A stretch of DNA of 64,000 nucleotides from Candidatus Aenigmatarchaeota archaeon (GTDB lineage Archaea; Aenigmatarchaeota; Aenigmatarchaeia; JACPZZ01): contig JACQNZ010000004.1 of NCBI GenBank assembly GCA_016202815.1, forward strand, positions 57,522-121,521. The letters are read 5' to 3'. Both the position numbers and the translations under genes were made by a program. The notes under the pieces are model-generated. The model made no database searches and was not told the origin of the DNA. It was given only the letters and a program-made list of their open reading frames with translations. Below are positions 1 to 12,931 of this stretch, in pieces. Positions within the stretch are counted from its first letter, which is position 1; the number at the start of each line of letters is the position of its first letter.

Positions 1-1739
1 GGATTTAATGGCATGAAAAACTCTTGTATCTTTCTCACGCAATGAGGTGAAACAGCCATGCTATCAGTATCGCAAAAGGCGTAGGTCTCGTTATCTTTGG
101 ATAATATCGTTTCTGTTATAGCAAGTATCAATCTAGATGCAGAAGTTATTAGGGTCGCTATTATCGGATTGTAAGCAAATCCAATCCTTTCTATACTATT
201 GACATGAATATCGAATGATTCTAGTCCATGTATGGTTACATCTGCTTCTTCATCCGAAGGATTGGTTTCTATGAATATACCATAACTAGTAGAATTTGCT
301 ATGATTTTTAGTATCTTCTTCCGTTTCTCATCGCTTCTGTTCCTTTCCTCTATCAATACTTTGAAAAGGTCGTCTTCGTATGGATCTATCTCCATCCCTA
401 GAATATTGGCTTTGTTCATGCCTTTCTGTTTTTCTTTAGAAAGAAATTTGAAAGCTTTGATTATTGTCGGTGTCTTGCCAGTAAGAATCTTGGAAGCTAT
501 AACATCCGATAATGCATAATAAAGCGGTTTCTTGAAAGTTGCATAATTCAAGCCTATATTGTAGGCTTCCTTTTCTCCATATTTCATTCTAATCGGAAGT
601 ATGTCATTATTCGGAAGGATTTGGACTATGCGATTAAGATTCTTCCAAGTATCCCTATCTCTCAGTTTTTCTAACGTGATGTCATTTACGAATTCTCTTG
701 CTTTTTCTGTATCGTCTATAACTTCAATCTGTTCTGATGTGATCAAATCCCATAGATTCTGAAGTATGCATACACTGGGGTACATGCTTAGGAAGTCAAT
801 TAGGGTAACTTTTGTTGGTTCTTCTCTGATCTTTACTTCGCTTCTACCACCATAGTAAGCGGTCATGACATAACCGAGAATATCCTTTGAAAAGTTGGGA
901 TTCTTTTCGAAGAATGACTTTATTCCGAACTTAGAAAGGCACGCCTTACCTAATGAGGCTGGAGAAAAGACTTTAGTTAAAGGCAAATCCAAACCGTATC
1001 CGGCATACTCTCCTTTCAGTTTTTCGTAGAGTTCATACGTTATTTGGACATCGTTTAAGTTGTATTGCAGATGTTTCTCTGTTATGTTATTGTATTCTGT
1101 CTCAGTCTTTCTATGCTCTGTATTGAAACGTTCACATGCGCTTTTCAATGTCAATTTATCATTAGTAAGCGCAAAACTCAATGTTTTTAGATCCAAGAAA
1201 TTGCCGCTGAAGTTTTTCTTCTTACCATTGTATAGAATTCCTGAAGCAAATTGAATGAATGATAACGTATTGCTAATGTGCTTTATCTTGACTCTGGGTT
1301 GTTTCTTATACCTACTCAGTTGCAACGAGAATCCATTTCTCATGCCTTTTCTCGCATGACCAAATTTGATAGCTAATCTTGAGATATCAAACGGCAAATT
1401 GAATCCAATGCAAGGTGTTTCTAGATAGTAGACTTCCGGATAGAATATGTTCTCTATGAACTCTTCTTTTGTGTACAGGTTTAGGTTATGTTTCTTGCAG
1501 AATATTTGAATTATTTCCTTATCGATTTCTGATATGTTGGGGTCATAAAAGATGCCTTGAATTTCTATTGCGTCTTTATTTCGTATCTGGAAAGATCCGT
1601 AAATTAGATTCTGATAAATATCTGTTGTTGTTTCCGTATCGAATATCAAAACCCTATCGAAGTTAGGAGCATCTCTGATTATCGTTTTATGATTATCCTT
1701 TTTGTAATCCACGTAAGATCTTAGAGCAATTTCACTCAT
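1..1739 (-). CDS. polB: Family B DNA polymerase, compact protein-primed-like type (C-terminus truncated by window edge)
   Basis: Own translation of the minus strand from ATG at 1739 is open to position 1; contains Exo I FDTETTT, Exo II GFNLPFDISRL, Exo III YNLNDV, YGG, motif A LIDFLSMYPSV, motif B KILKIIANSTSYG, motif C AFCDTDSMAV in canonical order. Confidence 0.8.
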   Translation of the reverse strand, partial: MSEIALRSYVDYKKDNHKTIIRDAPNFDRVLIFDTETTTDIYQNLIYGSFQIRNKDAIEIQGIFYDPNISEIDKEIIQIFCKKHNLNLYTKEEFIENIFYPEVYYLETPCIGFNLPFDISRLAIKFGHARKGMRNGFSLQLSRYKKQPRVKIKHISNTLSFIQFASGILYNGKKKNFSGNFLDLKTLSFALTNDKLTLKSACERFNTEHRKTETEYNNITEKHLQYNLNDVQITYELYEKLKGEYAGYGLDLPLTKVFSPASLGKACLSKFGIKSFFEKNPNFSKDILGYVMTAYYGGRSEVKIREEPTKVTLIDFLSMYPSVCILQNLWDLITSEQIEVIDDTEKAREFVNDITLEKLRDRDTWKNLNRIVQILPNNDILPIRMKYGEKEAYNIGLNYATFKKPLYYALSDVIASKILTGKTPTIIKAFKFLSKEKQKGMNKANILGMEIDPYEDDLFKVLIEERNRSDEKRKKILKIIANSTSYGIFIETNPSDEEADVTIHGLESFDIHVNSIERIGFAYNPIIATLITSASRLILAITETILSKDNETYAFCDTDSMAVSPHCVRKIQEFFMPLN

Positions 1740-2091
1740 CGAAAAAACCTCGTTTGTTTAGTCTATCGCTAATGCATCTGAGAAGAGAACCGATTGAAAT
1801 GTCTTCCATTCTCGGATTGTATGCGTTTGATTTCTTTCTAATTTTCAAAGGTAATTTGTTCTGATTATCCGTAACGATTTTGTGGCAATTCTGACAAAGA
1901 CAAACTGTTACTTTGCTGTTATTTCTGCCGAATACATGATGTTTCTGTAGAACTCTGGGATCATTTTCTCTGCAGATAAAGCATGCTCCGCCAGCGTCTA
2001 ATATTTCTCTGATGTTTTCTTCTGATCTTCTGTTTTCGATCAATAACTTCTGGTATCTCTTGAATTGTTCCTTGTCCATTCTAAACACCAT
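1732..2091 (-). CDS. HNH endonuclease
   Basis: CFIC...HH...CLCQNCH pattern typical of HNH nuclease zinc-binding core; overlaps polB start by 8 nt (operonic). Confidence 0.7.
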   Translation of the reverse strand: MVFRMDKEQFKRYQKLLIENRRSEENIREILDAGGACFICRENDPRVLQKHHVFGRNNSKVTVCLCQNCHKIVTDNQNKLPLKIRKKSNAYNPRMEDISIGSLLRCISDRLNKRGFFDE

Positions 2092-2572
2092 AAATATCGT
2101 AGAATTCCTCGTCTTCTCTGGCTTCTGCTATCTCGAAGAGTGTTTTGGGACTGGTTTCGAGTTTGTGTCGCTTGCCTTTAGCGTCCTTTATGACTCTTCG
2201 CTTGAATTTCTTCAGAATTGACTTGTCGCCGGTTTCTAGGTATCTTCTAACAGCACTATGATATTGGCCAATGAGGGATGCATCCTTTGAGTTTGTAACT
2301 ATTATCTCGATTGATAGCCCCCTTTCATTGATGACCATACCCCTCTGAATTCTATCGGTCTTTCTGGACACCCATCTTCGATTTTTAGCCTTCCTTATTG
2401 CTGATCCTAGATGTATCTTTGCGGTTTCTTTATCCAGTCCATACTCCTTTGAGGACTTTGTGAGGGATTTACCGGATCGCATCTCGGTTAGGACTTTCAG
2501 AGAAAGGATGCGGAGATATCTGTCCTTCGGTTTGAGCTTAGACCATTTTAGATTACTCGGTATTTTGACCAT
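2081..2572 (-). CDS. HTH-domain protein (casposon accessory)
   Basis: Basic 163 aa protein with helix-turn-helix-like segment; overlaps HNH gene; AT-rich codon usage like neighbours. Confidence 0.4.
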   Translation of the reverse strand: MVKIPSNLKWSKLKPKDRYLRILSLKVLTEMRSGKSLTKSSKEYGLDKETAKIHLGSAIRKAKNRRWVSRKTDRIQRGMVINERGLSIEIIVTNSKDASLIGQYHSAVRRYLETGDKSILKKFKRRVIKDAKGKRHKLETSPKTLFEIAEAREDEEFYDIYGV

Positions 2573-2647
2573 AGAATAGAAATGGGCAAAATATCATACT
2601 AGGATAGTTCGTAAATTAGATTAAATTTCTAAGAACTAACTTAAAAT

Positions 2648-3502
2648 ATGAACAACAGGAACATACTTCTCACTTTGTTATATCTATGCTCAATAAAACC
2701 ATTTTGTTCTAAGGAAATATCTGATATTCTGTTCGGGCATGAGCGTAATGACCGGAGTATCAAAAAATATCTTTCAAATATGAAAAAGAACGGTCTACTA
2801 AAACTCGTTGATTATCAAAATACAAAATACCCAAAATCTGAGTTCTTTGTCATTAACCTAGAAAGATTTCCTAATTGGGAAAATGACAGAGACAAAATCT
2901 TTGTTCCAGTAGGCGATCCAAACAAGGGTATAACAAGACTGTATATAGAAACGGAAAAAATTCCATTCAAGGAATTATTTGACTTACTTGGAATTTCAAC
3001 AGCCATAGGGTCTGGAAAACTGATAGCCACCATCAAAGGACGTATACCTGACGGTAGGGTAGGGTATTTAAACAGGGCAGTTCAAGAGAATGGTATGGAA
3101 AAACCCATAAACAATCTTAAAGTCGTATTCTACATTCCGCAGGGGTTAGAGGATTCGAAAGAAGTGATAGAAATACTGGAACGTCTTAAAACCCTGAAAC
3201 CTCCCAAATCAATCGGTTTCGAGTATTCTGTTAAAAAAATGAAGAAAGAAGATGAAGAAGAATTGAAGATTAAGGTGCTTATTCCGTTAGCTGTTAATTT
3301 CGGAATAAAGATAAAACAGACTCAAAACACAAAATCCCTATATCCACAGTTGATAACATACAATGGGAACGATTTGTGGACTTTTTACCCTCAACATAGG
3401 AAGGGAGAAGGCGAGATATCAATTATCAACTTCTTGAACGCCCTAGAATCTGGAAAATTCTTGGGGTTACATATAACACAGTATGAAAGGCGATTAGGAT
3501 GA
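2648..3502 (+). CDS. Hypothetical protein, possible N-terminal winged-helix domain
   Basis: 284 aa ORF immediately upstream of and overlapping cas1 start; no recognisable catalytic motif. Confidence 0.35.
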   Translation: MNNRNILLTLLYLCSIKPFCSKEISDILFGHERNDRSIKKYLSNMKKNGLLKLVDYQNTKYPKSEFFVINLERFPNWENDRDKIFVPVGDPNKGITRLYIETEKIPFKELFDLLGISTAIGSGKLIATIKGRIPDGRVGYLNRAVQENGMEKPINNLKVVFYIPQGLEDSKEVIEILERLKTLKPPKSIGFEYSVKKMKKEDEEELKIKVLIPLAVNFGIKIKQTQNTKSLYPQLITYNGNDLWTFYPQHRKGEGEISIINFLNALESGKFLGLHITQYERRLG

Positions 3503-4689
3503 AGCACCTTGTCCTAAGTGGACATGGAATAAACATCAACGTAGATAATAGCAGACTTCATGTCAAAGACGGTAGAAACGACCCAGACACAGAGCCCAAG
3601 AAATACACCTTCAAACCAAAAATGATGGACTTCGATAATGTCATTGTCTATGGTCATAGCGGAAACATAACACTCGAAGCTATGAGATGGCTCGTTAAGC
3701 AGAATGTGCAATTGACGCTGTTGGATTGGAATGGCAACTTGCTAACAAGCGTAATGCCACCGGAATCAAAACAAATCAACTACAGAATGGTTCAATACCA
3801 AGCGTATCAAACTGAAGAAAGAACAAGACTTGCCAAACTTCTCGTAGACGCTAAAATCAAGAGTAGCAAAGTTGTCCTAAGTTGGTTGAAGAGTAAGTAT
3901 CCTCAGATAAGCGATGATATCGAATACCGATACTCGAAACTACCAAGCGCAAATTCTGTAAAATACGTAATGGACGTTGAAGGCAAAGTTGCAATTGTCT
4001 ATTGGAGAGAACTTTCAAAGATATTCAACAAGACTTTTGAATTTGAAACCAGAGGTTATGGAAAGACACCTAGACCATTAGGAGCTGTAGACCCTATCAA
4101 TGTCCTTTTGAACTATGGTTATGCCGTTTTAGAAAGCGTATGTCTCAAAGCGATAAACACCGTGGGATTAGACCCTAAGATAGGATTCTTGCATGAGGCT
4201 CAAACAGGAAAGAACCCACTCGTATACGACTTACAAGAGCCTTTCAGATGGATTATTGATGTCGCTATCCTGAATGGTCTAGAGAAACGATTGTTCAAGA
4301 AGGACGATTTCATACGGACTGAGAACTATAACCTGAGGCTAAGGCCGAGTGGTGCAAAGAAGCTGGTTAGAGAGATAGAGTTGCAGATGAACAAGACTGT
4401 AGATTACAGAGGTTACAACTACAGTTGGGCATATATCATCGGTTTGAAGGCTTTGGAATTGGCGCAGTATTTAGCAGAGAAGAGGAAAACCATCGACTTC
4501 AGTAATCCTTCGCCTGAGTTGGAGATGAAGGATAACGCTGAGTTGAGACAAAAAATACTAGATTTGTCGTCTGCTAAGGCCGAGAAATTGGGGATCGGAC
4601 GAAATGAATTGCACTATCTGAGGAAGAAAGCGAAGTCAGAGAAAGCGTTTAAAATTTATGGAAAAGTAAAAGATAGACTGAGATGTTAA
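3499..4689 (+). CDS. cas1: Cas1-family integrase (casposase)
   Basis: Translation has the Cas1 hallmark block NYGYAVLES...GLDPKIGFLHEAQTGKNPLVYDLQEPFRWIID with conserved E/H/acidic catalytic positions, and a C-terminal HTH-like tail; no CRISPR repeats anywhere in window. Confidence 0.85.
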   Translation: MKHLVLSGHGININVDNSRLHVKDGRNDPDTEPKKYTFKPKMMDFDNVIVYGHSGNITLEAMRWLVKQNVQLTLLDWNGNLLTSVMPPESKQINYRMVQYQAYQTEERTRLAKLLVDAKIKSSKVVLSWLKSKYPQISDDIEYRYSKLPSANSVKYVMDVEGKVAIVYWRELSKIFNKTFEFETRGYGKTPRPLGAVDPINVLLNYGYAVLESVCLKAINTVGLDPKIGFLHEAQTGKNPLVYDLQEPFRWIIDVAILNGLEKRLFKKDDFIRTENYNLRLRPSGAKKLVREIELQMNKTVDYRGYNYSWAYIIGLKALELAQYLAEKRKTIDFSNPSPELEMKDNAELRQKILDLSSAKAEKLGIGRNELHYLRKKAKSEKAFKIYGKVKDRLRC

Positions 4690-4690
4690 A

Positions 4691-5314
4691 ATGGGTTATA
4701 AGACGAAAAAGATCATACTGAAAATGAATGGTAAGCACCTCAAAGGTATGTATGTAGAAAGGAGCAAAAAATGTATGGTCTTAGAAATTCCCGGAACTAG
4801 TATACATTCAACTTTCCCTTTGGTTAGTAAGGACTATCATTGGACACCTGTTGTAGAATTATCAGAAGAAGAAGCAGAAATTGTTGGAAAGTGTTTAAAA
4901 CAAGATAAAAATTTTAGATATACATTGAAAGATGGAAAATTGAGAATATACCCAAAAATTAGTACAGACAACTTCGATGTTTTTGGAGTCCATTTGGGCA
5001 CATTTGCAGGATTTATGAAAGAGTGCAGTACACTCAAAAAAGATTATGAGATTATAGACTTGGACGCTCTTGGATGTAAAATTCCTAATATCTGGGTTAC
5101 AATCCGTCCTCAAACAGAAAAAAAATTATACATGCCGGATATGCCATACATACTGAAAACTTTGCGAATAGACTATCCAGATGTTATAGTAATTCTGGAG
5201 TTTATCGACGCAACTAAACATGCTGAATGCGTCAAACAAAGTGATAACAGCTCTTTTGGAAAGACTAAACTCATTGAGAAAACAGAGAAGTACTATGGAG
5301 ATGTGTCTAGATGA
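4691..5314 (+). CDS. Hypothetical protein
   Basis: 207 aa ORF 2 nt after cas1 stop, same AT-rich composition. Confidence 0.4.
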   Translation: MGYKTKKIILKMNGKHLKGMYVERSKKCMVLEIPGTSIHSTFPLVSKDYHWTPVVELSEEEAEIVGKCLKQDKNFRYTLKDGKLRIYPKISTDNFDVFGVHLGTFAGFMKECSTLKKDYEIIDLDALGCKIPNIWVTIRPQTEKKLYMPDMPYILKTLRIDYPDVIVILEFIDATKHAECVKQSDNSSFGKTKLIEKTEKYYGDVSR

Positions 5315-5877
5315 AAGGAGAACGATTAACGATAAAATTAACAATTATTGGATTACTACTCGCTATGATCTTTGGTATATCAACTTTTTATGGAGATAAA
5401 AGACTTCCCGTTGGATTCGATCTATTTTTAGCGGTCTTGTCTAAATCTATGATACCTATTTCGTCATTGTTTTTCATTTACATTGTTGGGTTGGCTGGGG
5501 ATTATAAAAACTATTCCTATAAACGTGGTTATCGTTGGTATAACGCATTTTATGATCTGGGTGTAGTATTATCGACATTTACTGTCGCATTTTCAGCGTT
5601 AATAACATTTGTACTGTACGTTTCGGGAGAATTAAATAGTATACCCTTGTTCATAGCTGGGCTTTTTGCAACAGTATTAGTAGTGTTCTATCTGATCAGA
5701 AATGATTTAAGACGTTCTATTTTAGATTTGTCAAAAATTACACTAGATCTAATTAATCATATATCTTCGGTAGTCATGAAATCGAAGAAAGTGGCTGTTC
5801 AAAGGGTTAAGGCTGACGTGAAAAAACGTTCAAGATCTAGAAAAAAATATACGCCTAAGCGGCTGAAAAAACCTTAA
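5311..5877 (+). CDS. Hypothetical membrane protein
   Basis: Multiple hydrophobic helices, basic C-terminal tail; overlaps previous ORF by 4 nt. Confidence 0.4.
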   Translation: MKGERLTIKLTIIGLLLAMIFGISTFYGDKRLPVGFDLFLAVLSKSMIPISSLFFIYIVGLAGDYKNYSYKRGYRWYNAFYDLGVVLSTFTVAFSALITFVLYVSGELNSIPLFIAGLFATVLVVFYLIRNDLRRSILDLSKITLDLINHISSVVMKSKKVAVQRVKADVKKRSRSRKKYTPKRLKKP

Positions 5878-5884
5878 ATTTGAT

Positions 5885-6472
5885 TCATGAACTCCGTTTT
5901 TTATTATTCGAAGTCAGTATTTTGAGATCTGTTCTATATTCCAAAAAGTTTAGTATAGCCATAATTATCAGCACCCAAAACATTATAGAAACGGTTGAAA
6001 AAACCATCCAAATAAAAAACCAATAAAGACCTATGAACATAGATAAAATACCGTATCTAAAAAGCCTTTTTTGCATCAAATAATAGAAACGTTTTATACC
6101 GGAAAATACATGTAACTTGTAAGAAATTAGTAAAAGAGAAATTGAAAACACCCACGCGAAAGATATGTCCACAATTGTTTTTTGATAGGGTTGTGCGCTC
6201 AAAGTCAGAATTATTGATAGCGAAGTTAGCACAAGACCACCAAATGTAAGTGAGTCGCTCGATAATTTCTCAATTTCATCTATGATGCTGTGTTGTTTAT
6301 CTTCAATCTCATCTTTTCTAAAACCAGAGTCCAAGATTTTTTTACCTATTAACTTCGAATCTGCTAAGGTTTCTATCAAGATACAAACAGCAAGACCAAC
6401 AACCGTTATTATTCCCAGATTGCTACTAACAAGACCGAATAAATAGTCTATCACTTTCCACAACTCTGGCAT
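5885..6472 (-). CDS. Hypothetical membrane protein
   Basis: 195 aa ORF with several hydrophobic segments; last gene before the tRNA. Confidence 0.4.
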   Translation of the reverse strand: MPELWKVIDYLFGLVSSNLGIITVVGLAVCILIETLADSKLIGKKILDSGFRKDEIEDKQHSIIDEIEKLSSDSLTFGGLVLTSLSIILTLSAQPYQKTIVDISFAWVFSISLLLISYKLHVFSGIKRFYYLMQKRLFRYGILSMFIGLYWFFIWMVFSTVSIMFWVLIIMAILNFLEYRTDLKILTSNNKKRSS

Positions 6473-6638
6473 TTACCATAAGAATTTTTTATTGCTTGGC
6501 AATATGGACATGTTAAATATTTTTTGACTTCTATCTCGGGTTCTCCCATAAATAATCTTTTCGTATTTTGATTGATAAGTATTACATCATCCCACTTTTG
6601 TCCAATTTCTGGGAGATATCTATATCCCATAAATTTAT

Positions 6639-6766
6639 TGGGGAAACCGTGATTTGAACACGGGTCACCGACTATCTCTAAGCTTTTCTTTCCCTCAAGG
6701 CTTTCTTTCTTGAAAAGAAAGGCTTGCCCGAAGCCGGTATCTTAGACCAGGCTGGACCATTTCCCC
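6639..6766 (-). tRNA. tRNA-Pro (anticodon CGG) candidate with about 53 nt intron after position 37
   Basis: Hand fold: acceptor GGGGAAA/TTTCCCC, D-loop AGCCTGGTCTA consensus, anticodon stem CCGGC/GTCGG with loop TTCGGG, T-arm CCGTG-TTCAAAT-CACGG, discriminator A; D-stem weak (3 bp); intron contains a 12 bp hairpin; CCA not encoded. Confidence 0.55.
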
Positions 6767-6880
6767 CTTCTTACAGGCACACACCAATATTATGCGCCAA
6801 TCGTTATAACACTCTTTCTTTTATTATGGCCATCATCTTTTAAAATAGGCTTTTATTACGGCTCCGAATTAAGTTAAATA

Positions 6881-7759
6881 ATGCGAGGTACCAGAAACAT
6901 TGTTCCGGCGCTAACAGCCTTTTTATTAGTTTTACCCATGGCGATTTCGCCTGCTCTGGCAACGGGTTACGATGTGCAGAAGGTCGATATTTCATTCGAC
7001 GTAGGCTCTGATAATTCAGTTAAGCAAACGACCAGATTCTATTTTTCAAGTCCTGTGACGGACGGTTCGATAAATTACACGCTAAACGAGCCTGTCAAAA
7101 ACATAGTGGTTTATGGTGGCAATAAACAGTTGGATAGTAAATTGGACGGTGAGGGGGACAATTATAACTTGCAGATATTTTTGGACGGACCGGTTGAGAC
7201 ATTGTTAATAACCTATTCTGCCAGCGGTATAGTGTTCCACAGCGGTTCGGTGAACCATTTATTCACACAGTTTTCCTTTGAAAAGGAGATACCGATCGTG
7301 AACTCGCAACTAAAATTGCCGACAGGCTACGAAGTCTACCAGAATTCGTACAATCCCGCCGACGGCACGATAACATCGGACGGCAAAAGTATAATCTTGG
7401 CGTGGAATGAAAGCAACGTAAGCGGTTCTATACTATTCTCGGTAAAGTACGTCAATCCGGATAAAGGTTTTATTTTTTTGGTTGCTTTTGCCTTTTTGGC
7501 CACAGGAATCGTTGCGTTTCTCTATTTCCATTTCAGGAAGAAGACAGCAGAAGCGTTTTTAAAAGGTTTCCGGGAAGACGAAAAGAAAACCATCCTGTAC
7601 CTCAGGGGCAAGCAAACCGCCTTGCAAAGGGATTTGCAGGCCGAGTTCGGCTTTTCGAGAGCCAAGTCCACAAGAATAATCTACGAGTTGGAGAAGAAGG
7701 GCCTTGTCAGGAAACAAAGGCACGGGCGGACCAACAAGTTATTTTGGCTAAATAAATGA
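6881..7759 (+). CDS. Membrane-anchored protein with C-terminal winged-helix DNA-binding domain
   Basis: Signal peptide-like N-terminus, extracytoplasmic domain, one TM helix, then basic wHTH-like tail (ILYLRGKQTALQRDLQAEFGFSRAKSTRIIYELEKKGLV). Confidence 0.5.
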   Translation: MRGTRNIVPALTAFLLVLPMAISPALATGYDVQKVDISFDVGSDNSVKQTTRFYFSSPVTDGSINYTLNEPVKNIVVYGGNKQLDSKLDGEGDNYNLQIFLDGPVETLLITYSASGIVFHSGSVNHLFTQFSFEKEIPIVNSQLKLPTGYEVYQNSYNPADGTITSDGKSIILAWNESNVSGSILFSVKYVNPDKGFIFLVAFAFLATGIVAFLYFHFRKKTAEAFLKGFREDEKKTILYLRGKQTALQRDLQAEFGFSRAKSTRIIYELEKKGLVRKQRHGRTNKLFWLNK

Positions 7760-7814
7760 CTGTTTCACGACTGTTTCAACACCCAGATTAGGATCTGAAA
7801 CGGACAATAAACCG

Positions 7815-8639
7815 ATGTCAAGAAAAGCGCAGGAGACGCTTTTTTATGACGGAGGTGGGAGCATGAAGTCGTGGATGGCAGGAATGCTGGTGGCGCTGGT
7901 AATGACAGCGCCATTAGCAGCGGGGCAGGGCATAAATACGTCTGCAAGTACGGACGTAAGGGCCGTGAACACATTGAGCCTCGGCCTGAGGCAGGTAGGC
8001 GAGTCGTTTAGCGACTTTGTCTTTCGTATAAAAGCAATTTTAACATTTGACGAAAGGGCAAGGCTGGATCTGCTAAAGGCCAGAAACGAGGAAATGAAAT
8101 CCAGGCAACACGCCTGGTTGAAAATAAAAAGCGATATGCTTGCACAGGTAAAGGCAGGCAACTTGACAGCCGAAGAAAAGCAGCAGGTAATGAAACAGGT
8201 AAAAGCCGAGCACGAGGCAATAATCAGGGAGCATTTCGGGCTGACAGCTGATATGAGAAAAATCCAGCTGAAGGCAAAAGCGCATGGAAGAACCGAGTTG
8301 GAGAGATCAGCCGAAGAGGAAGCGGATGAGGCTGAGGAATCGGATGTCTCCCTTGGGCTGAACATAGGTGCGGAGCTTAGTATCGGAGTGAGTGAAAACG
8401 TGACGGCGGACCAGGCTAAAACTCTAGTAGGAGAGAAGCTTGGTTTTGAAACAGCCGACGTTAGGACGGAGACAAGAAACGGCACTACATTTTACGTGGT
8501 GTCAGGAACAGAGACGAGCGCAGCCGGAAACTACACGCTGAAAAAAGGTTTTGAGGCGTGGGTCAGAGCCGACACGGGAATGATACATTCCTTGGGTATG
8601 GACGCCCGGTTGGACAGCGCAGTAGGAGTCAGCGTATAG
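7815..8639 (+). CDS. Secreted coiled-coil protein, hypothetical
   Basis: Signal peptide-like MKSWMAGMLVALVMTAPLAAG then charged helical repeats; true start may be the internal Met. Confidence 0.45.
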   Translation: MSRKAQETLFYDGGGSMKSWMAGMLVALVMTAPLAAGQGINTSASTDVRAVNTLSLGLRQVGESFSDFVFRIKAILTFDERARLDLLKARNEEMKSRQHAWLKIKSDMLAQVKAGNLTAEEKQQVMKQVKAEHEAIIREHFGLTADMRKIQLKAKAHGRTELERSAEEEADEAEESDVSLGLNIGAELSIGVSENVTADQAKTLVGEKLGFETADVRTETRNGTTFYVVSGTETSAAGNYTLKKGFEAWVRADTGMIHSLGMDARLDSAVGVSV

Positions 8640-8766
8640 AAAACTGCAATAGCACCCCAATAAGGTGGGCCGGCGGGACCAGAGCCAGCAGCCATAGGTT
8701 AAATTTCCGCCGGCCCATTAATTTATCAAATTAAAGGATAGGTTTGCTAATAAATTATCAAAGCAG

Positions 8767-9669
8767 ATGTGGATTGAGATGAGAAAAAATTTAATTATGC
8801 TTGTGCAGATGGTTATGCTTGCAGTATTAACCAGTCCCGTTTCCGCGCAGATCGCATCGCAATCCTTTGTTCACGTAGACTTCGCGGACGACAATTTGAC
8901 TGACGCGAAATTGGAAGTCGCGGAAACCACATTTTCGGAACCCGGGTTGTTGCCAAACCATCCGCTGTACCCTTTGAAGAGGGGTTTTGAGAATATCCGG
9001 CTTCTGTTAACGTTTGGCAACGAGAAAAAGGCCGAACTCCACCAGGAGTTTGCAAAAACCAGACTTGCAGAAGTCAAAAAACTGGTCGAAGAAAATAATA
9101 CCTTTGATGTCAAGAGGTCGTTGGACGAATTTGACAGGGAGTTGAACGATTCTGAAAACCTTTACGTTAAAATTAGGAAAAACAATTCAGTTACGACAAA
9201 AGCCAGGGAAGATTTCATGATCCAAAGTAACCTGGTTCTTGGTTCTGTATTAAAGAAAGTTCCCGAGCAATCCAAACCTTCGATAGAAAAAGTGTTAAAC
9301 AGATCCGGTGAAAGGAAATTGAACATAAAATTCAGGCCGGCCAACAGCGAGAACACAGAAAACCGCACGGAGAACGAAGAGACTGTCAAGGAAAAGACCG
9401 GGACGGAAAAGAATAAGCCCGAGGCTGTGAAAAAGAAAACCGAGAGATCGGAAGTATGCATACAGGTCATTACACCTGCGATAAGTCCTAGCGGGGAGTG
9501 CAAGGAATTCCCGACGCCTTGTGATGTTCCGAGAGGGTGGAAAAAAGTAAGCGCATGTGAACCGGATACAACGCAGAAAAAACCGGAAAAGTCGGGCGAG
9601 TCCACGATGAAAAGTCCCTTGGATGTTCCTTCTAAGGTTCCGGGTGTAAAGAAAATTATCGGCCTTTAA
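8767..9669 (+). CDS. Secreted protein, hypothetical
   Basis: N-terminal signal peptide, charged middle, Cys pairs near C-terminus. Confidence 0.45.
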   Translation: MWIEMRKNLIMLVQMVMLAVLTSPVSAQIASQSFVHVDFADDNLTDAKLEVAETTFSEPGLLPNHPLYPLKRGFENIRLLLTFGNEKKAELHQEFAKTRLAEVKKLVEENNTFDVKRSLDEFDRELNDSENLYVKIRKNNSVTTKAREDFMIQSNLVLGSVLKKVPEQSKPSIEKVLNRSGERKLNIKFRPANSENTENRTENEETVKEKTGTEKNKPEAVKKKTERSEVCIQVITPAISPSGECKEFPTPCDVPRGWKKVSACEPDTTQKKPEKSGESTMKSPLDVPSKVPGVKKIIGL

Positions 9670-9735
9670 GCAGATTTTCCCAAAATTTCAACCATCAATG
9701 TTAAATCCCCGCCTGCGCAATCAAATCTGGTAAAA

Positions 9736-11259
9736 ATGAGGAAAATACCGGCTATAATGTCGACCCAGCACCCGGATTGCGCCAGCCTTCCCGATTTCGT
9801 GAAAGGCGACATATTCAGCAACGACGACGAGGTTGCTGAAGCGGCTAACGCCTTTAAGATCGGCTGCGACGAACAGCTTTGGGACTGGGAAGGCAAGGAA
9901 GTGGACACGCATGTTGTGCGAAAGCTGCTTTCTGCGGACGAACGGTTTTTCCGCGAAAACGCGCTTGGCAAGGACGTTTTTATAACTTACCGCATACCGA
10001 ACCCCGAGGTCGAAGGCGCCGAGCGCAAGCTTGTCGTGGAAGCGCTAGAATCAATACCGAGAAACTTCGATGTTGCGAAAAAGTTCTACGGAAACTGCGA
10101 GCCGCCGATAATAGAAGTCGCGCTGCCGATGACGACGTCACACGAACAGATGCTGCGCGTGTCTTCGTACTACGAGAACGTTGTCGTCAATAAAGAAAAT
10201 ATGCCGGTTTACGGCGGCATAAAGCTGAAGGAGTGGATAGGCGAATTCAACCCAAAAACGGTCGGCGTCATACCGCTGATAGAGGACATGCAAAGCATTT
10301 TAAACACCAAAGGAATATTGGGCGGTTTTTTGGCGAACAAGAACGCCGAGTACACACGGCCGTGGATCGCGAGATCCGACACGGCGCTGAACTACGGGCT
10401 GGTCCCGTCGACATTGCTTGTGAAATTTTTCCTGTCATGCGTCGCGGCTTCGGAAGCGGAAACGGGCGTTCCCCATTATCCGATACTTGCCACAGGCGCG
10501 ATGCCTTTCCGCGGAGGGCTAAACCCGGACAATGTGGAAAATTTCCTGGAAGAATATGGAGCTTTCAAAACGTACGCGTTGCAGTCGTCGGCGAAATACG
10601 ATTTTGAGCGCGAAAAGGTGGCGAAGATGATAGATTCGCTAAAAAAGCATTCGCAGCACAAGGCCAAGGAAATGGGCGAGGACGAAAAGCGGGGGCTGCT
10701 AGGCATTGTGGAGGCGTTCTCGGGCGGATACAGGAAAAGGGTGGAAGGCCTGGCGCATGTTGTCAACGTTGTATCAGGCAAGGTGCCGAACAGGCGAAGC
10801 AGGCATTTGCATATAGGGTTGTTCGGCTACAGCCGTAATTTCTCCGATTCTGTAAAGCTGCCGCGTGCGATAAAATTTGCAGCTTCGCTTTATTCGATCG
10901 GGCTGCCGCCTGAAATAATCGGGATAAGCTCGTTGAATGCTGCCGAAAGCAGCGGAAATAAAAACGGGCTTGACAGGCTTTATGTTAACCTAAAAGGCGA
11001 TCTTGCTACAGTGTCAGGTTTAGTTTCCAAATCAGCGATTAAAATAGCATGCGAGAAGGGCTTGATAGGCCAGGAGACGCTGGACATGGTCAATGAAGAC
11101 ATAGAAGCTGTCGAAAGTTTTGGGATCGAAATCGGGGCGAAGACGCTGGAGGAAGAGCAGCACCAGCTTCTTGCCAAGCAGATTGTTTCTAACATAGGCG
11201 ACGGCAAGGTTACCGACAGGATAACCGAGGCTGCGAAAATCAGGAAATCGCTGGGTTAG
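9736..11259 (+). CDS. ppcA: Phosphoenolpyruvate carboxylase, archaeal type
   Basis: About 500 aa with N-terminal IPAIMSTQHPD signature characteristic of archaeal-type PEPC. Confidence 0.8.
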   Translation: MRKIPAIMSTQHPDCASLPDFVKGDIFSNDDEVAEAANAFKIGCDEQLWDWEGKEVDTHVVRKLLSADERFFRENALGKDVFITYRIPNPEVEGAERKLVVEALESIPRNFDVAKKFYGNCEPPIIEVALPMTTSHEQMLRVSSYYENVVVNKENMPVYGGIKLKEWIGEFNPKTVGVIPLIEDMQSILNTKGILGGFLANKNAEYTRPWIARSDTALNYGLVPSTLLVKFFLSCVAASEAETGVPHYPILATGAMPFRGGLNPDNVENFLEEYGAFKTYALQSSAKYDFEREKVAKMIDSLKKHSQHKAKEMGEDEKRGLLGIVEAFSGGYRKRVEGLAHVVNVVSGKVPNRRSRHLHIGLFGYSRNFSDSVKLPRAIKFAASLYSIGLPPEIIGISSLNAAESSGNKNGLDRLYVNLKGDLATVSGLVSKSAIKIACEKGLIGQETLDMVNEDIEAVESFGIEIGAKTLEEEQHQLLAKQIVSNIGDGKVTDRITEAAKIRKSLG

Positions 11260-11285
11260 TTAAATAAGAATATCCAAATAATGGC

Positions 11286-11729
11286 ATGACACCGGAAAGG
11301 GAAATCAAAATAAAGCCGATAGGATTTGTGAAAAACGGCATCAAAAAACCCAGGTTCGGAAATTTTGCGGACGAAATTTCAGAGATAGTCGTGGACAAGA
11401 AATTCGCTGACGGGCTGGATAACATCGGTGATTATTCCCATGTGATCATAGTGTACTGGATGGACAAGGTAAAAGGTTATGTCACAAAACACAAACCGCA
11501 GGGCACCGGGCCTTTAGTCGGGATATTCGCGTGCCGGTGCGCGCAGAGGCCGAACCCTGTCGCGATAACGACTGTGAAACTTCTGGGACGCAATGGAAAC
11601 AAAATAAAAGTCAAGGGCCTTGACGTGTTAAACGGGACGCCTGTGATTGATATAAAGCCGTACTGGCCGCAATACGATAAAGTCAGGAATGGAAAAGTGC
11701 CTTCGTGGGTGGGCAGGCTGAAATTTTAG
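11286..11729 (+). CDS. TrmO/TsaA-family SAM-dependent methyltransferase
   Basis: IGFVKNG...NPVAITTVKLL...GLDVLNGTPVIDIKPYWP matches the TsaA/YaeB-like fold pattern. Confidence 0.65.
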   Translation: MTPEREIKIKPIGFVKNGIKKPRFGNFADEISEIVVDKKFADGLDNIGDYSHVIIVYWMDKVKGYVTKHKPQGTGPLVGIFACRCAQRPNPVAITTVKLLGRNGNKIKVKGLDVLNGTPVIDIKPYWPQYDKVRNGKVPSWVGRLKF

Positions 11730-11780
11730 GGGTTCGGCACATTTTTATACAAAACGCGACAAAGATAATTAAGGAATGTT

Positions 11781-12191
11781 ATGCGGGACCTTGCGCTTTT
11801 GCTTCACATAATGCTTGGGATCTCTTTGGTCGTATTGCCGCTGGTGATACTTTCCAAGCTCGGCAAAAAATCCTCGCTGGCGAGGACTCTTTCCCTTTTG
11901 AGCGCGGGCGCAAGCTGGACCCTCCTTTTTCCTGCCGGCATTTTATACACTATGTTTTATCCGGCTACTAAGACGCTCATCAAGTCAGGAGCATGGCCGT
12001 GGGCACATTCGGTTGTGATGGAAACGAAGGAACATTGGGGCCTGCTGTTGCCTGTGATAACAACTGTGGCGGCGTGGCTCGTCCTTGCGAACAAGGAAAA
12101 AGAAAGCAGGCGATGGTGGGTTCTCGCCGCTGTTTTGGCAGCGTTGCTGGGTGTCATGGGAAGGGTTGTAAAAATGGGGGCTTTGGCATGA
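11781..12191 (+). CDS. Hypothetical membrane protein
   Basis: 136 aa, four hydrophobic segments. Confidence 0.4.
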   Translation: MRDLALLLHIMLGISLVVLPLVILSKLGKKSSLARTLSLLSAGASWTLLFPAGILYTMFYPATKTLIKSGAWPWAHSVVMETKEHWGLLLPVITTVAAWLVLANKEKESRRWWVLAAVLAALLGVMGRVVKMGALA

Positions 12192-12481
12192 CCAAGAAGT
12201 TAAACGTTTACGCAGGGGCGCACGCCGCATCGTGGACGCTGGCAGCTCTTGTTGTTGGCGCAGAGCTTTTGGCGCCGTTAAAGGCCGTGTTAAGCGCAGT
12301 TTTCGGCCACCATTGGATCGGAAAGGCCGTGATCACAACGTTCATGTTTATCGCATTCAGCTACGCGTTCAAGGGAAAGAGACTGTCCAAAAAAACCTCC
12401 GATAACGACGTTGCGTGGAACAGCGCTGTTGGAAGCCTAACCGCGATATTCCTTTTTTATCTGGCAGAGTTTTTACTGTGA
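12188..12481 (+). CDS. Small hypothetical membrane protein
   Basis: ATG at 12188 overlaps upstream stop; hydrophobic 97 aa product; the longer listed ORF start at 11993 overlaps the upstream gene in another frame and is unlikely. Confidence 0.35.
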   Translation: MTKKLNVYAGAHAASWTLAALVVGAELLAPLKAVLSAVFGHHWIGKAVITTFMFIAFSYAFKGKRLSKKTSDNDVAWNSAVGSLTAIFLFYLAEFLL

Positions 12482-12931
12482 TTGTCTATGATACACAAGA
12501 AAAAACACAACGATGCGCCTGTGGGGCTTGTCCTAGTCTTGTTTTTTGCCGCTGCCATAATTTACCTTTTCGCCTCTTCTGACAGTGCGAAGGGCCAAAT
12601 TCCATCGTATGTCACAGGCGATGTGCGCGCGGTTTACGAATGGGCTAGAACACAGGAGGGGAACGATTTGCTGGAACAAATGCCATGTTACTGCGGCTGC
12701 AAGTATGAAGGCCACAAGCATGCCAGGCATTGCTTTTGGAGGGACGACGGGAGTTTTGACAGGCACGGCACAACCTGTTCGACATGCCTGGACATTGCGA
12801 AAAAAACCATGCAAATGAGCAAGCAGGGAAAGAGCGTTTGCGAGATACGAAACGAGATAGACAGGTTCTATGCTCCCAACGTTAACCTGGGGACTAACAC
12901 GCCGATGCCCAGGGGCTGCGCGGCGTCTTGA
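12482..12931 (+). CDS. Membrane-anchored Cys-rich protein with PCYCGC motif
   Basis: N-terminal TM helix then MPCYCGCKYEGHKHARHC and CSTC motifs. Confidence 0.45.
   Translation: MSMIHKKKHNDAPVGLVLVLFFAAAIIYLFASSDSAKGQIPSYVTGDVRAVYEWARTQEGNDLLEQMPCYCGCKYEGHKHARHCFWRDDGSFDRHGTTCSTCLDIAKKTMQMSKQGKSVCEIRNEIDRFYAPNVNLGTNTPMPRGCAAS

Follow-up and report, generated by a model that had tools for sequence, protein, structure and literature searches.

Positions 6639-6766 of the window, by which we mean the whole 64,000-nt stretch of DNA that was analysed, very probably hold on the minus strand a functional host gene for tRNA-Pro(CGG), whose intron would be spliced at a bulge-helix-bulge (BHB) motif and which served as the landing site of a family-2 casposon. 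Three lines of comparison bear on this assignment: orthologous genes with the same exons, intronless relatives that share the cloverleaf, and a complete homologous casposon inserted at the matching offset of another tRNA-Pro gene. The host is an Aenigmarchaeota (DPANN) metagenome-assembled genome (MAG), and the window holds archaeal-type genes for PEP carboxylase, topoisomerase I, FtsZ and an ATP-dependent DNA ligase.

The tRNA-Pro(CGG) gene and its relatives

ARAGORN in intron mode (ARAGORN -i) called a single tRNA gene in the whole window, tRNA-Pro(cgg) c[6639,6766], with a 53-nt intron after position 37. A sequence-only reading had placed a putative tRNA-Pro(CGG) with an intron of about 53 nt at the same coordinates. 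The gene is divided as follows.

6639..6766, minus strand: tRNA-Pro(CGG) gene, precursor body of 128 nt, 75 nt when spliced, CCA not encoded (ARAGORN -i, identical exons, cloverleaf covariation)
6727..6766, minus strand: 5' exon, tRNA positions 1-37, with the anticodon CGG at 6728-6730 (invariant in five orthologues)
6674..6726, minus strand: intron, 53 nt, between positions 37 and 38, with a long hairpin (h' helix; orthologous introns at the same site)
6639..6673, minus strand: 3' exon, tRNA positions 38-73 (invariant in five orthologues)

Read on the minus strand, the gene consists of GGGGAAATGGTCCAGCCTGGTCTAAGATACCGGCTTCGGG, 53 nt of intron and AGTCGGTGACCCGTGTTCAAATCACGGTTTCCCCA. The elements that had been folded by hand are all present in the ARAGORN structure: a perfect 7-bp acceptor stem (GGGGAAA/TTTCCCC), a D loop of the sequence AGCCTGGTCTA with G18 and G19, the anticodon loop UUCGGG|A (TTCGGG in the DNA) and a standard T arm (CCGTG-TTCAAAT-CACGG). 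The identity marks of proline were found (anticodon CGG, G37 and discriminator A73), as were the features of a class I archaeal tRNA, namely four arms together with U8, A14, G18G19, U33, T54-Psi55-C56 and A58. As the earlier reading had it, the D stem has 3 bp (G10-U25, U11-A24 and C12-G23), with C13 and A22 unpaired. The pair 13:22 is open in four of seven related tRNA-Pro genes, and therefore the short D stem is a trait of the family and not a defect.

Default ARAGORN, which has no intron mode, returned no tRNA in the window. Rfam gave no match anywhere in the window at gathering thresholds, and at permissive thresholds no tRNA match in the unspliced DNA of 6560-6840. This silence is expected, because the 53-nt intron interrupts the tRNA, and it is not counter-evidence to the gene. 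As a chance control, ARAGORN -i was run on 60 dinucleotide shuffles of the window, which gave six calls, or about 0.1 false calls per shuffled 64-kb window; their introns measured 79-2329 nt and none was short. Since shuffled sequences also give calls, ARAGORN by itself provides evidence of moderate specificity, and the comparative data are decisive.

For this comparison, archaeal and bacterial contigs (one genome per species) were scanned with the T arm and the CCCCA end. The scan yielded 64 loci, nearly all of them from DPANN archaea and the majority tRNA-Pro genes. The orthologous gene was found in two Aenigmarchaeota MAGs (L042 and L065) and in two metagenome contigs (L067 and L068). Exons of all four are identical to those of the window at 75 of 75 positions; these orthologues were retrieved by exact-match exon patterns, so that conservation of the pattern stretches comes partly by selection, and the other exon bases were unconstrained. 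Both flanks have diverged among the orthologues, and the upstream genes are syntenic, with nucleotide identities of about 68% in L042 and about 64% in L065.

The spliced window tRNA was further aligned with six intronless DPANN tRNA-Pro(CGG) genes, and gaps were needed only in the D loop. On this alignment of seven sequences the cloverleaf left 94.6% of cells paired, 24 cells had changed on both sides, and compensatory changes were observed in the acceptor, D and anticodon stems. The covariation score was reached by none of 500 shuffles, and structures slid by 1-3 columns, the control for the cloverleaf fit, had at most 50% of cells paired. In its anticodon loop and T arm the tRNA agrees base for base with the intronless tRNA-Pro(CGG) gene of L007, where CTTCGGG-AGT runs uninterrupted; in the window the same stretch is recreated only on removing the 53 nt. 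It could be argued that the tRNA call is a chance match that arises from allowing an arbitrary intron, and the false-call rate on shuffles speaks for this view. However, all calls on shuffles had introns of at least 79 nt (five of six above 200 nt), and a chance match does not account for orthologues with identical exons or for cloverleaf covariation with intronless relatives. Judged on these sequence comparisons, this explanation is already refuted, and the probability that we leave to it is close to nil.

Several further observations were made on this gene and its relatives. Many DPANN and some Methanosarcinales tRNA genes have the T arm CCGTGTTCAAATCACGG...CCCCA in exactly this form, and with it the recognition motif of the casposase. 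About 24 of 65 genes at the loci L003-L066 bear an intron according to ARAGORN -i. Several genes of this set were typed as Phe, Val, Leu or another non-Pro tRNA, probably owing to a mis-parsed anticodon loop. Upstream of the window gene, an A/T-rich box (CATAATATTGG, 6786-6796, minus strand) lies about 20-30 nt from the mature 5' end and has the counterpart CATACTATTGG in L042. It is a plausible archaeal TATA element and is unaligned in the other three orthologues.

The intron and its splice motif

The intron site is the same in all five loci, and the introns measure 51, 52, 53, 65 and 111 nt. Identity to the window intron is 96% in L068 (52 nt), 81% in L065 (51 nt), 57% in L067 (65 nt) and 40% in L042 (111 nt). 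Removal of the intron restores a 7-nt anticodon loop. The segment had been described as forming its own 12-bp hairpin; the hairpin is there, whereas the number of pairs is 13, arranged as 4 bp and 9 bp around a C/A mismatch.

We used the 37/38 BHB geometry, in which positions 32-35 pair with intron positions -3 to -6, the bulge G36 G37|i1 forms the 5' site and the bulge i(-2) i(-1)|38 the 3' site. Both 3-nt bulges and both outer helices are present in the five orthologues. The central helix H consists of U32-G/A, U33-A and C34-G, followed by G35 opposite an invariant A. Bases of the bulges vary (AU, UU, UA or AA before A38, and C or U after G37). Within the h' helix, A-U, G-C or G·U occurs as the first pair and G-C, C-G, U·G or G·U as the third; pairs of h' change on both sides while intron identity drops to 40%, in a comparison of only five sequences. 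Thermodynamic folding did not by itself give the H helix. An alternative register, with G35-G37 in a helix with the 3' part of the intron, was rejected after a hand check, as it is unconserved among the orthologues. A C/D-box guide RNA within the 53-nt intron was also rejected, since direct reading found no RUGAUGA or CUGA motif.

Canonical archaeal hBHBh' introns are located at the 37/38 site, have two 3-nt bulges and are cut after the second bulge base of each strand (PMC5829648). The intron described here is alike in its site and its two 3-nt bulges, with the anticodon stem as h and the intron hairpin as h'. In contrast to the canonical form, an invariant G35·A stands in the 4-bp central helix next to the 5' bulge, and a strict hBHBh' comparison therefore counts three standard pairs plus G35·A instead of 4 bp. 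The intron is also rather long (51-111 nt in the clade) and rich in purine and pyrimidine tracts. The earlier proposal of an archaeal BHB intron is thus borne out for the bulges, the outer helices and the covariation of h', but not for a textbook central helix. As read from the sequences, the splice motif of tRNA-Pro(CGG) is a BHB of slightly relaxed rather than strict form, and the intron, apart from a single non-standard opposition in the central helix, is of the ordinary archaeal 37/38 kind. DPANN archaea have varied splicing endonucleases, some with extra loops, and a raised load of disrupted tRNA genes (PMC5829648), and because of these reports a relaxed 37/38 intron is expected in this group.

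In the proposed processing pathway, tRNA-Pro(CGG) would be transcribed as a body of 128 nt. U32, U33 and C34 would pair with intron positions -3 to -5, G35 would face the invariant A, the bulges would be G36 G37|N1 and N N|A38, and the remaining intron would form the outer helix. The archaeal splicing endonuclease would then remove the 53-nt intron at this BHB, and exon ligation would yield the 75-nt tRNA, followed by CCA addition. From the conserved motif we infer that tRNA-Pro(CGG) is spliced in this way.

The imperfect central helix (G35·A) and the silent default tRNA and Rfam scans might instead point to a tRNA pseudogene, in which the 53 nt are an unspliceable insertion into the anticodon loop and the cell relies on another tRNA-Pro. 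We regard this as highly unlikely. The 75 exon bases are identical in five genomes, whereas the flanking genes are only about 54-68% identical, and in all of them an insert of variable length interrupts one and the same phosphodiester bond, its basal helix showing compensatory changes. Silence of default scanners, moreover, is what any intron-containing tRNA would produce. A functional tRNA-Pro(CGG) gene with a spliceable intron is therefore the reading that we retain.

The casposon and its predicted target site

[quoted passage not shown] The element and the predicted target site are listed below.

1..6628, no strand assigned: right part of a family-2 casposon, with its left end beyond the window start (gene content)
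1..1748, minus strand: family B DNA polymerase (PolB), N-terminal 582 codons of an 859-aa protein (P0121; translation motifs)
1732..2091, minus strand: tentative HNH-like small nuclease ORF, CxxC ... HH ... N ... CxxCH (motifs in the translation)
3499..4689, plus strand: casposase (Cas1 with C-terminal extension), 396 aa (Pfam Cas1, E = 8e-63)
6595..6628, minus strand: right terminal inverted repeat, GGGATATAGATATCTCCCAGAAATTGGAC... read outward-in, inner limit approximate (aligns with relatives)
6629..6642, minus strand: predicted 14-bp target-site duplication, tRNA-proximal copy CCCAATAAATTTAT (A. boonei rule and L074)
6651..6657, minus strand: TCAAATC in the T loop/T stem, casposase-type motif, 8 nt before the duplicated segment (sequence reading)

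The window Cas1 matches PDB 6OPM, which we take to be the Methanosarcina mazei family-2 casposase (Hickman et al. 2020), over its full length (E = 1.5e-124, residues 1-394, including the C-terminal domain). This is its closest solved structure; the other Cas1 structures, all labelled CRISPR-associated, scored E = 4e-31 or weaker, and NCBI names the window protein a CRISPR-associated endonuclease. Family-2 casposons of M. mazei use a tRNA-Leu gene, whereas the predicted target of the window casposon is tRNA-Pro. Motifs A, B and C of the window PolB were recognised in the translation (DFLSMYPS, KIIANSTSYG and FCDTDS); its Pfam matches are weak, and the full 859-aa protein has hundreds of homologues. 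CDTDS is the motif C signature of a PolB group to which the polymerase of the A. boonei casposon belongs (PMC7544198). The HNH-like ORF gave no significant Pfam match. PolB, the HNH-like ORF and the casposase are together the genes that a family-2 casposon carries (PMC9939771), a family that this review lists for euryarchaea only. Further ORFs between PolB and the tRNA comprise two of unknown function and several small ones, and no integrase gene was detected between position 1 and the tRNA by Pfam or ORF reading. The 859-aa PolB and the window Cas1 each have an identical counterpart in a Candidatus Aenigmarchaeota archaeon MAG at NCBI.

Close homologues of Cas1 and PolB were observed in other Aenigmarchaeota MAGs, an Iainarchaeum MAG, Nitrosopumilaceae and methanogens. 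A 59-aa ORF at 6451-6630 (minus strand) has two CxxC pairs, is zinc-ribbon-like and may be a gene; its start codon falls on the predicted junction of inverted repeat and duplication. To the left of the window start, the Logan contig L078 (2627-2868), which ends in Nextera adaptor sequence, carries a small CxxC-rich ORF beyond the PolB stop codon, beginning MYKVVKCPKCQ...

At the tRNA, an 8-nt spacer (ACGGTTTC, 6643-6650) separates TCAAATC from the predicted duplication, which has CC at its start (6641-6642) and takes in the final 4 nt of the tRNA. Directly after the predicted duplication comes the terminus sequence GGGATATAGATATCTCCC..., which aligns with both inverted repeats of L074, with the end of L076 and with the A. 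boonei oligonucleotide LE26r (GGGGATATATATACATCCCC). A second copy of the tRNA 3' end or of the duplication was not found above chance within the window. Exact-protein look-ups with Cas1, the 163-aa ORF and the full PolB retrieved only short Logan contigs, which did not reach the left end of the casposon; the longest extends about 1.08 kb past the window start, ends in adaptor sequence and has no inverted repeat. Viral contigs scanned with the T-arm pattern and Cas1 gave no usable match.

A homologous casposon, complete at 9.66 kb (2930-12585), is present in L074, with a Cas1 that is 59% identical to the window Cas1. Its 33-nt inverted repeats, GGGGTTATAGATAGAT(C/A)TCGGTTTTTGAACGCT, stand at both ends, and a 14-bp direct repeat (CTTATCAAAATGGG), the target duplication, lies on both sides. 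The casposon sits at the 3' end of an intronless tRNA-Pro(TGG) gene, in which the tRNA-proximal copy follows TCAAATC after 8 nt, the offset found in the window. The cargo of this casposon includes a trypsin-like protease.

L042 and L065 have the same tRNA and no casposon genes downstream of it; in L042 transporters, a ParE toxin and CutA1 follow. As the upstream side of the window gene is syntenic with these casposon-free relatives, the tRNA is the host gene and the casposon the insertion. In L042, positions 5149-5176 and 6052-6083 hold a fossil second copy that joins an inverted-repeat-like end, 15 nt resembling the duplication and 10 nt of the tRNA 3' end. It lies about 900 bp from the intact tRNA, with the ParE-toxin and CutA1 ORFs between the copies, and the flank at the intact tRNA begins with the repeat-like GGGTAGTAGATAAGG. 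As far as these sequences can be read, the copies suggest repeated insertions and decay at the tRNA site.

By analogy with A. boonei and L074, we infer that a casposon integrated at tRNA-Pro(CGG) in this genome, that it ends at 6628 and that the duplication occupies 6629-6642. The casposase would read TCAAATC in the T-loop DNA and attack 8 nt on, at the CC in the acceptor 3' strand. The insertion would then be flanked by a duplication of 14-15 bp, which would restore the last 4 tRNA bases and leave the tRNA intact. The left end would be an inverted copy, GGGATATAGATA..., preceded by ATAAATTTATTGGG (14-15 bp), and would lie a few kb outside the window.

A different view would accept the tRNA as real and take the adjacency as a coincidence, or as the work of a tyrosine-integrase-type element that used the tRNA as its attachment site. 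In its favour, the window shows only a single end of the element and lacks a further copy of the duplication, and the partial tRNA 3'-end copy in L042 is longer than a casposon duplication, which suggests events of other kinds. Against it, no integrase gene lies between position 1 and the tRNA, the terminus is homologous to casposon inverted repeats at the distance of the A. boonei rule, and L074 has the complete arrangement. We consider such an origin very unlikely, and integration by the casposase remains the preferred explanation.

Comparison with the A. boonei casposon and implications

In A. boonei, the target of the family-2 casposon is the 3' end of an intron-containing tRNA-Pro gene, where a 15-bp duplication overlaps the last 5 bp of tRNA-Pro (PMC5137440). 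For its casposase to act, the duplicated segment must begin with CC and be preceded, at a distance of 8 bp, by TCAAATC (PMC6614799), and of the inverted repeat only the 3'-terminal TCCCC is required (Béguin et al. 2016, 2019). The window and the AciBoo casposon of A. boonei are alike in the intron-bearing tRNA-Pro target and the element that abuts the tRNA 3' end, in TCAAATC in the T loop followed by 8 nt and a CC-starting duplication over the last tRNA bases, and in a gene content of PolB (CDTDS type), HNH-like ORF and casposase with C-terminal extension. Their termini resemble each other, with GGGGATATATATACATCCCC published for A. boonei (supplement) and GGGATATAGATATCTCCC in the window. The two differ in the host, which is an Aenigmarchaeota (DPANN) MAG here and a euryarchaeon in A. 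boonei, in the 3'-terminal bases (ATCCC in the window, TCCCC in A. boonei) and in the duplication, predicted as 14 bp with 4 tRNA bases in the window and reported as 15 bp with 5 bases in A. boonei. The A. boonei palindrome AGTCCCCCTTTGGGACT is absent from the window, which therefore does not come from A. boonei itself. This likeness is drawn from the published description of the A. boonei target and from the sequence of the window element. The claim that the tRNA is an integration target is supported, by analogy, by the match to A. boonei of both the terminus and the order TCAAATC, 8 nt, CC, and by the L074 duplication at the same offset. The arrangement of tRNA-Pro(CGG) and casposon closely mirrors, in another host lineage, what was published for A. 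boonei.

An intron-bearing tRNA-Pro beside a casposon leaves current understanding unchanged. The locus provides an independent natural example, from a distant DPANN host, of the target code that in vitro work on the A. boonei casposase had established, and it shows that a tRNA gene with an intron in its anticodon loop is still open to elements that recognise the T arm. The gene escapes tRNA and Rfam scans at default settings, and an annotation pipeline could report the MAG as being without tRNA-Pro(CGG).

It is tempting to speculate further that family-2 casposons are widespread in DPANN archaea and use a single landing pad of deep conservation, namely the T arm CCGTGTTCAAATCACGG of tRNA-Pro with CC after it, and that G35·A could mark a lineage-specific recognition by DPANN splicing endonucleases. 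We put this joint reading forward tentatively and hold it to be somewhat more doubtful than probable. If it is true, the pad would be common to Aenigmarchaeota, Micrarchaeota, Woesearchaeota, Undinarchaeota and some Methanosarcinales, and a conserved landing pad in the T arm could let one casposon family move between phyla.
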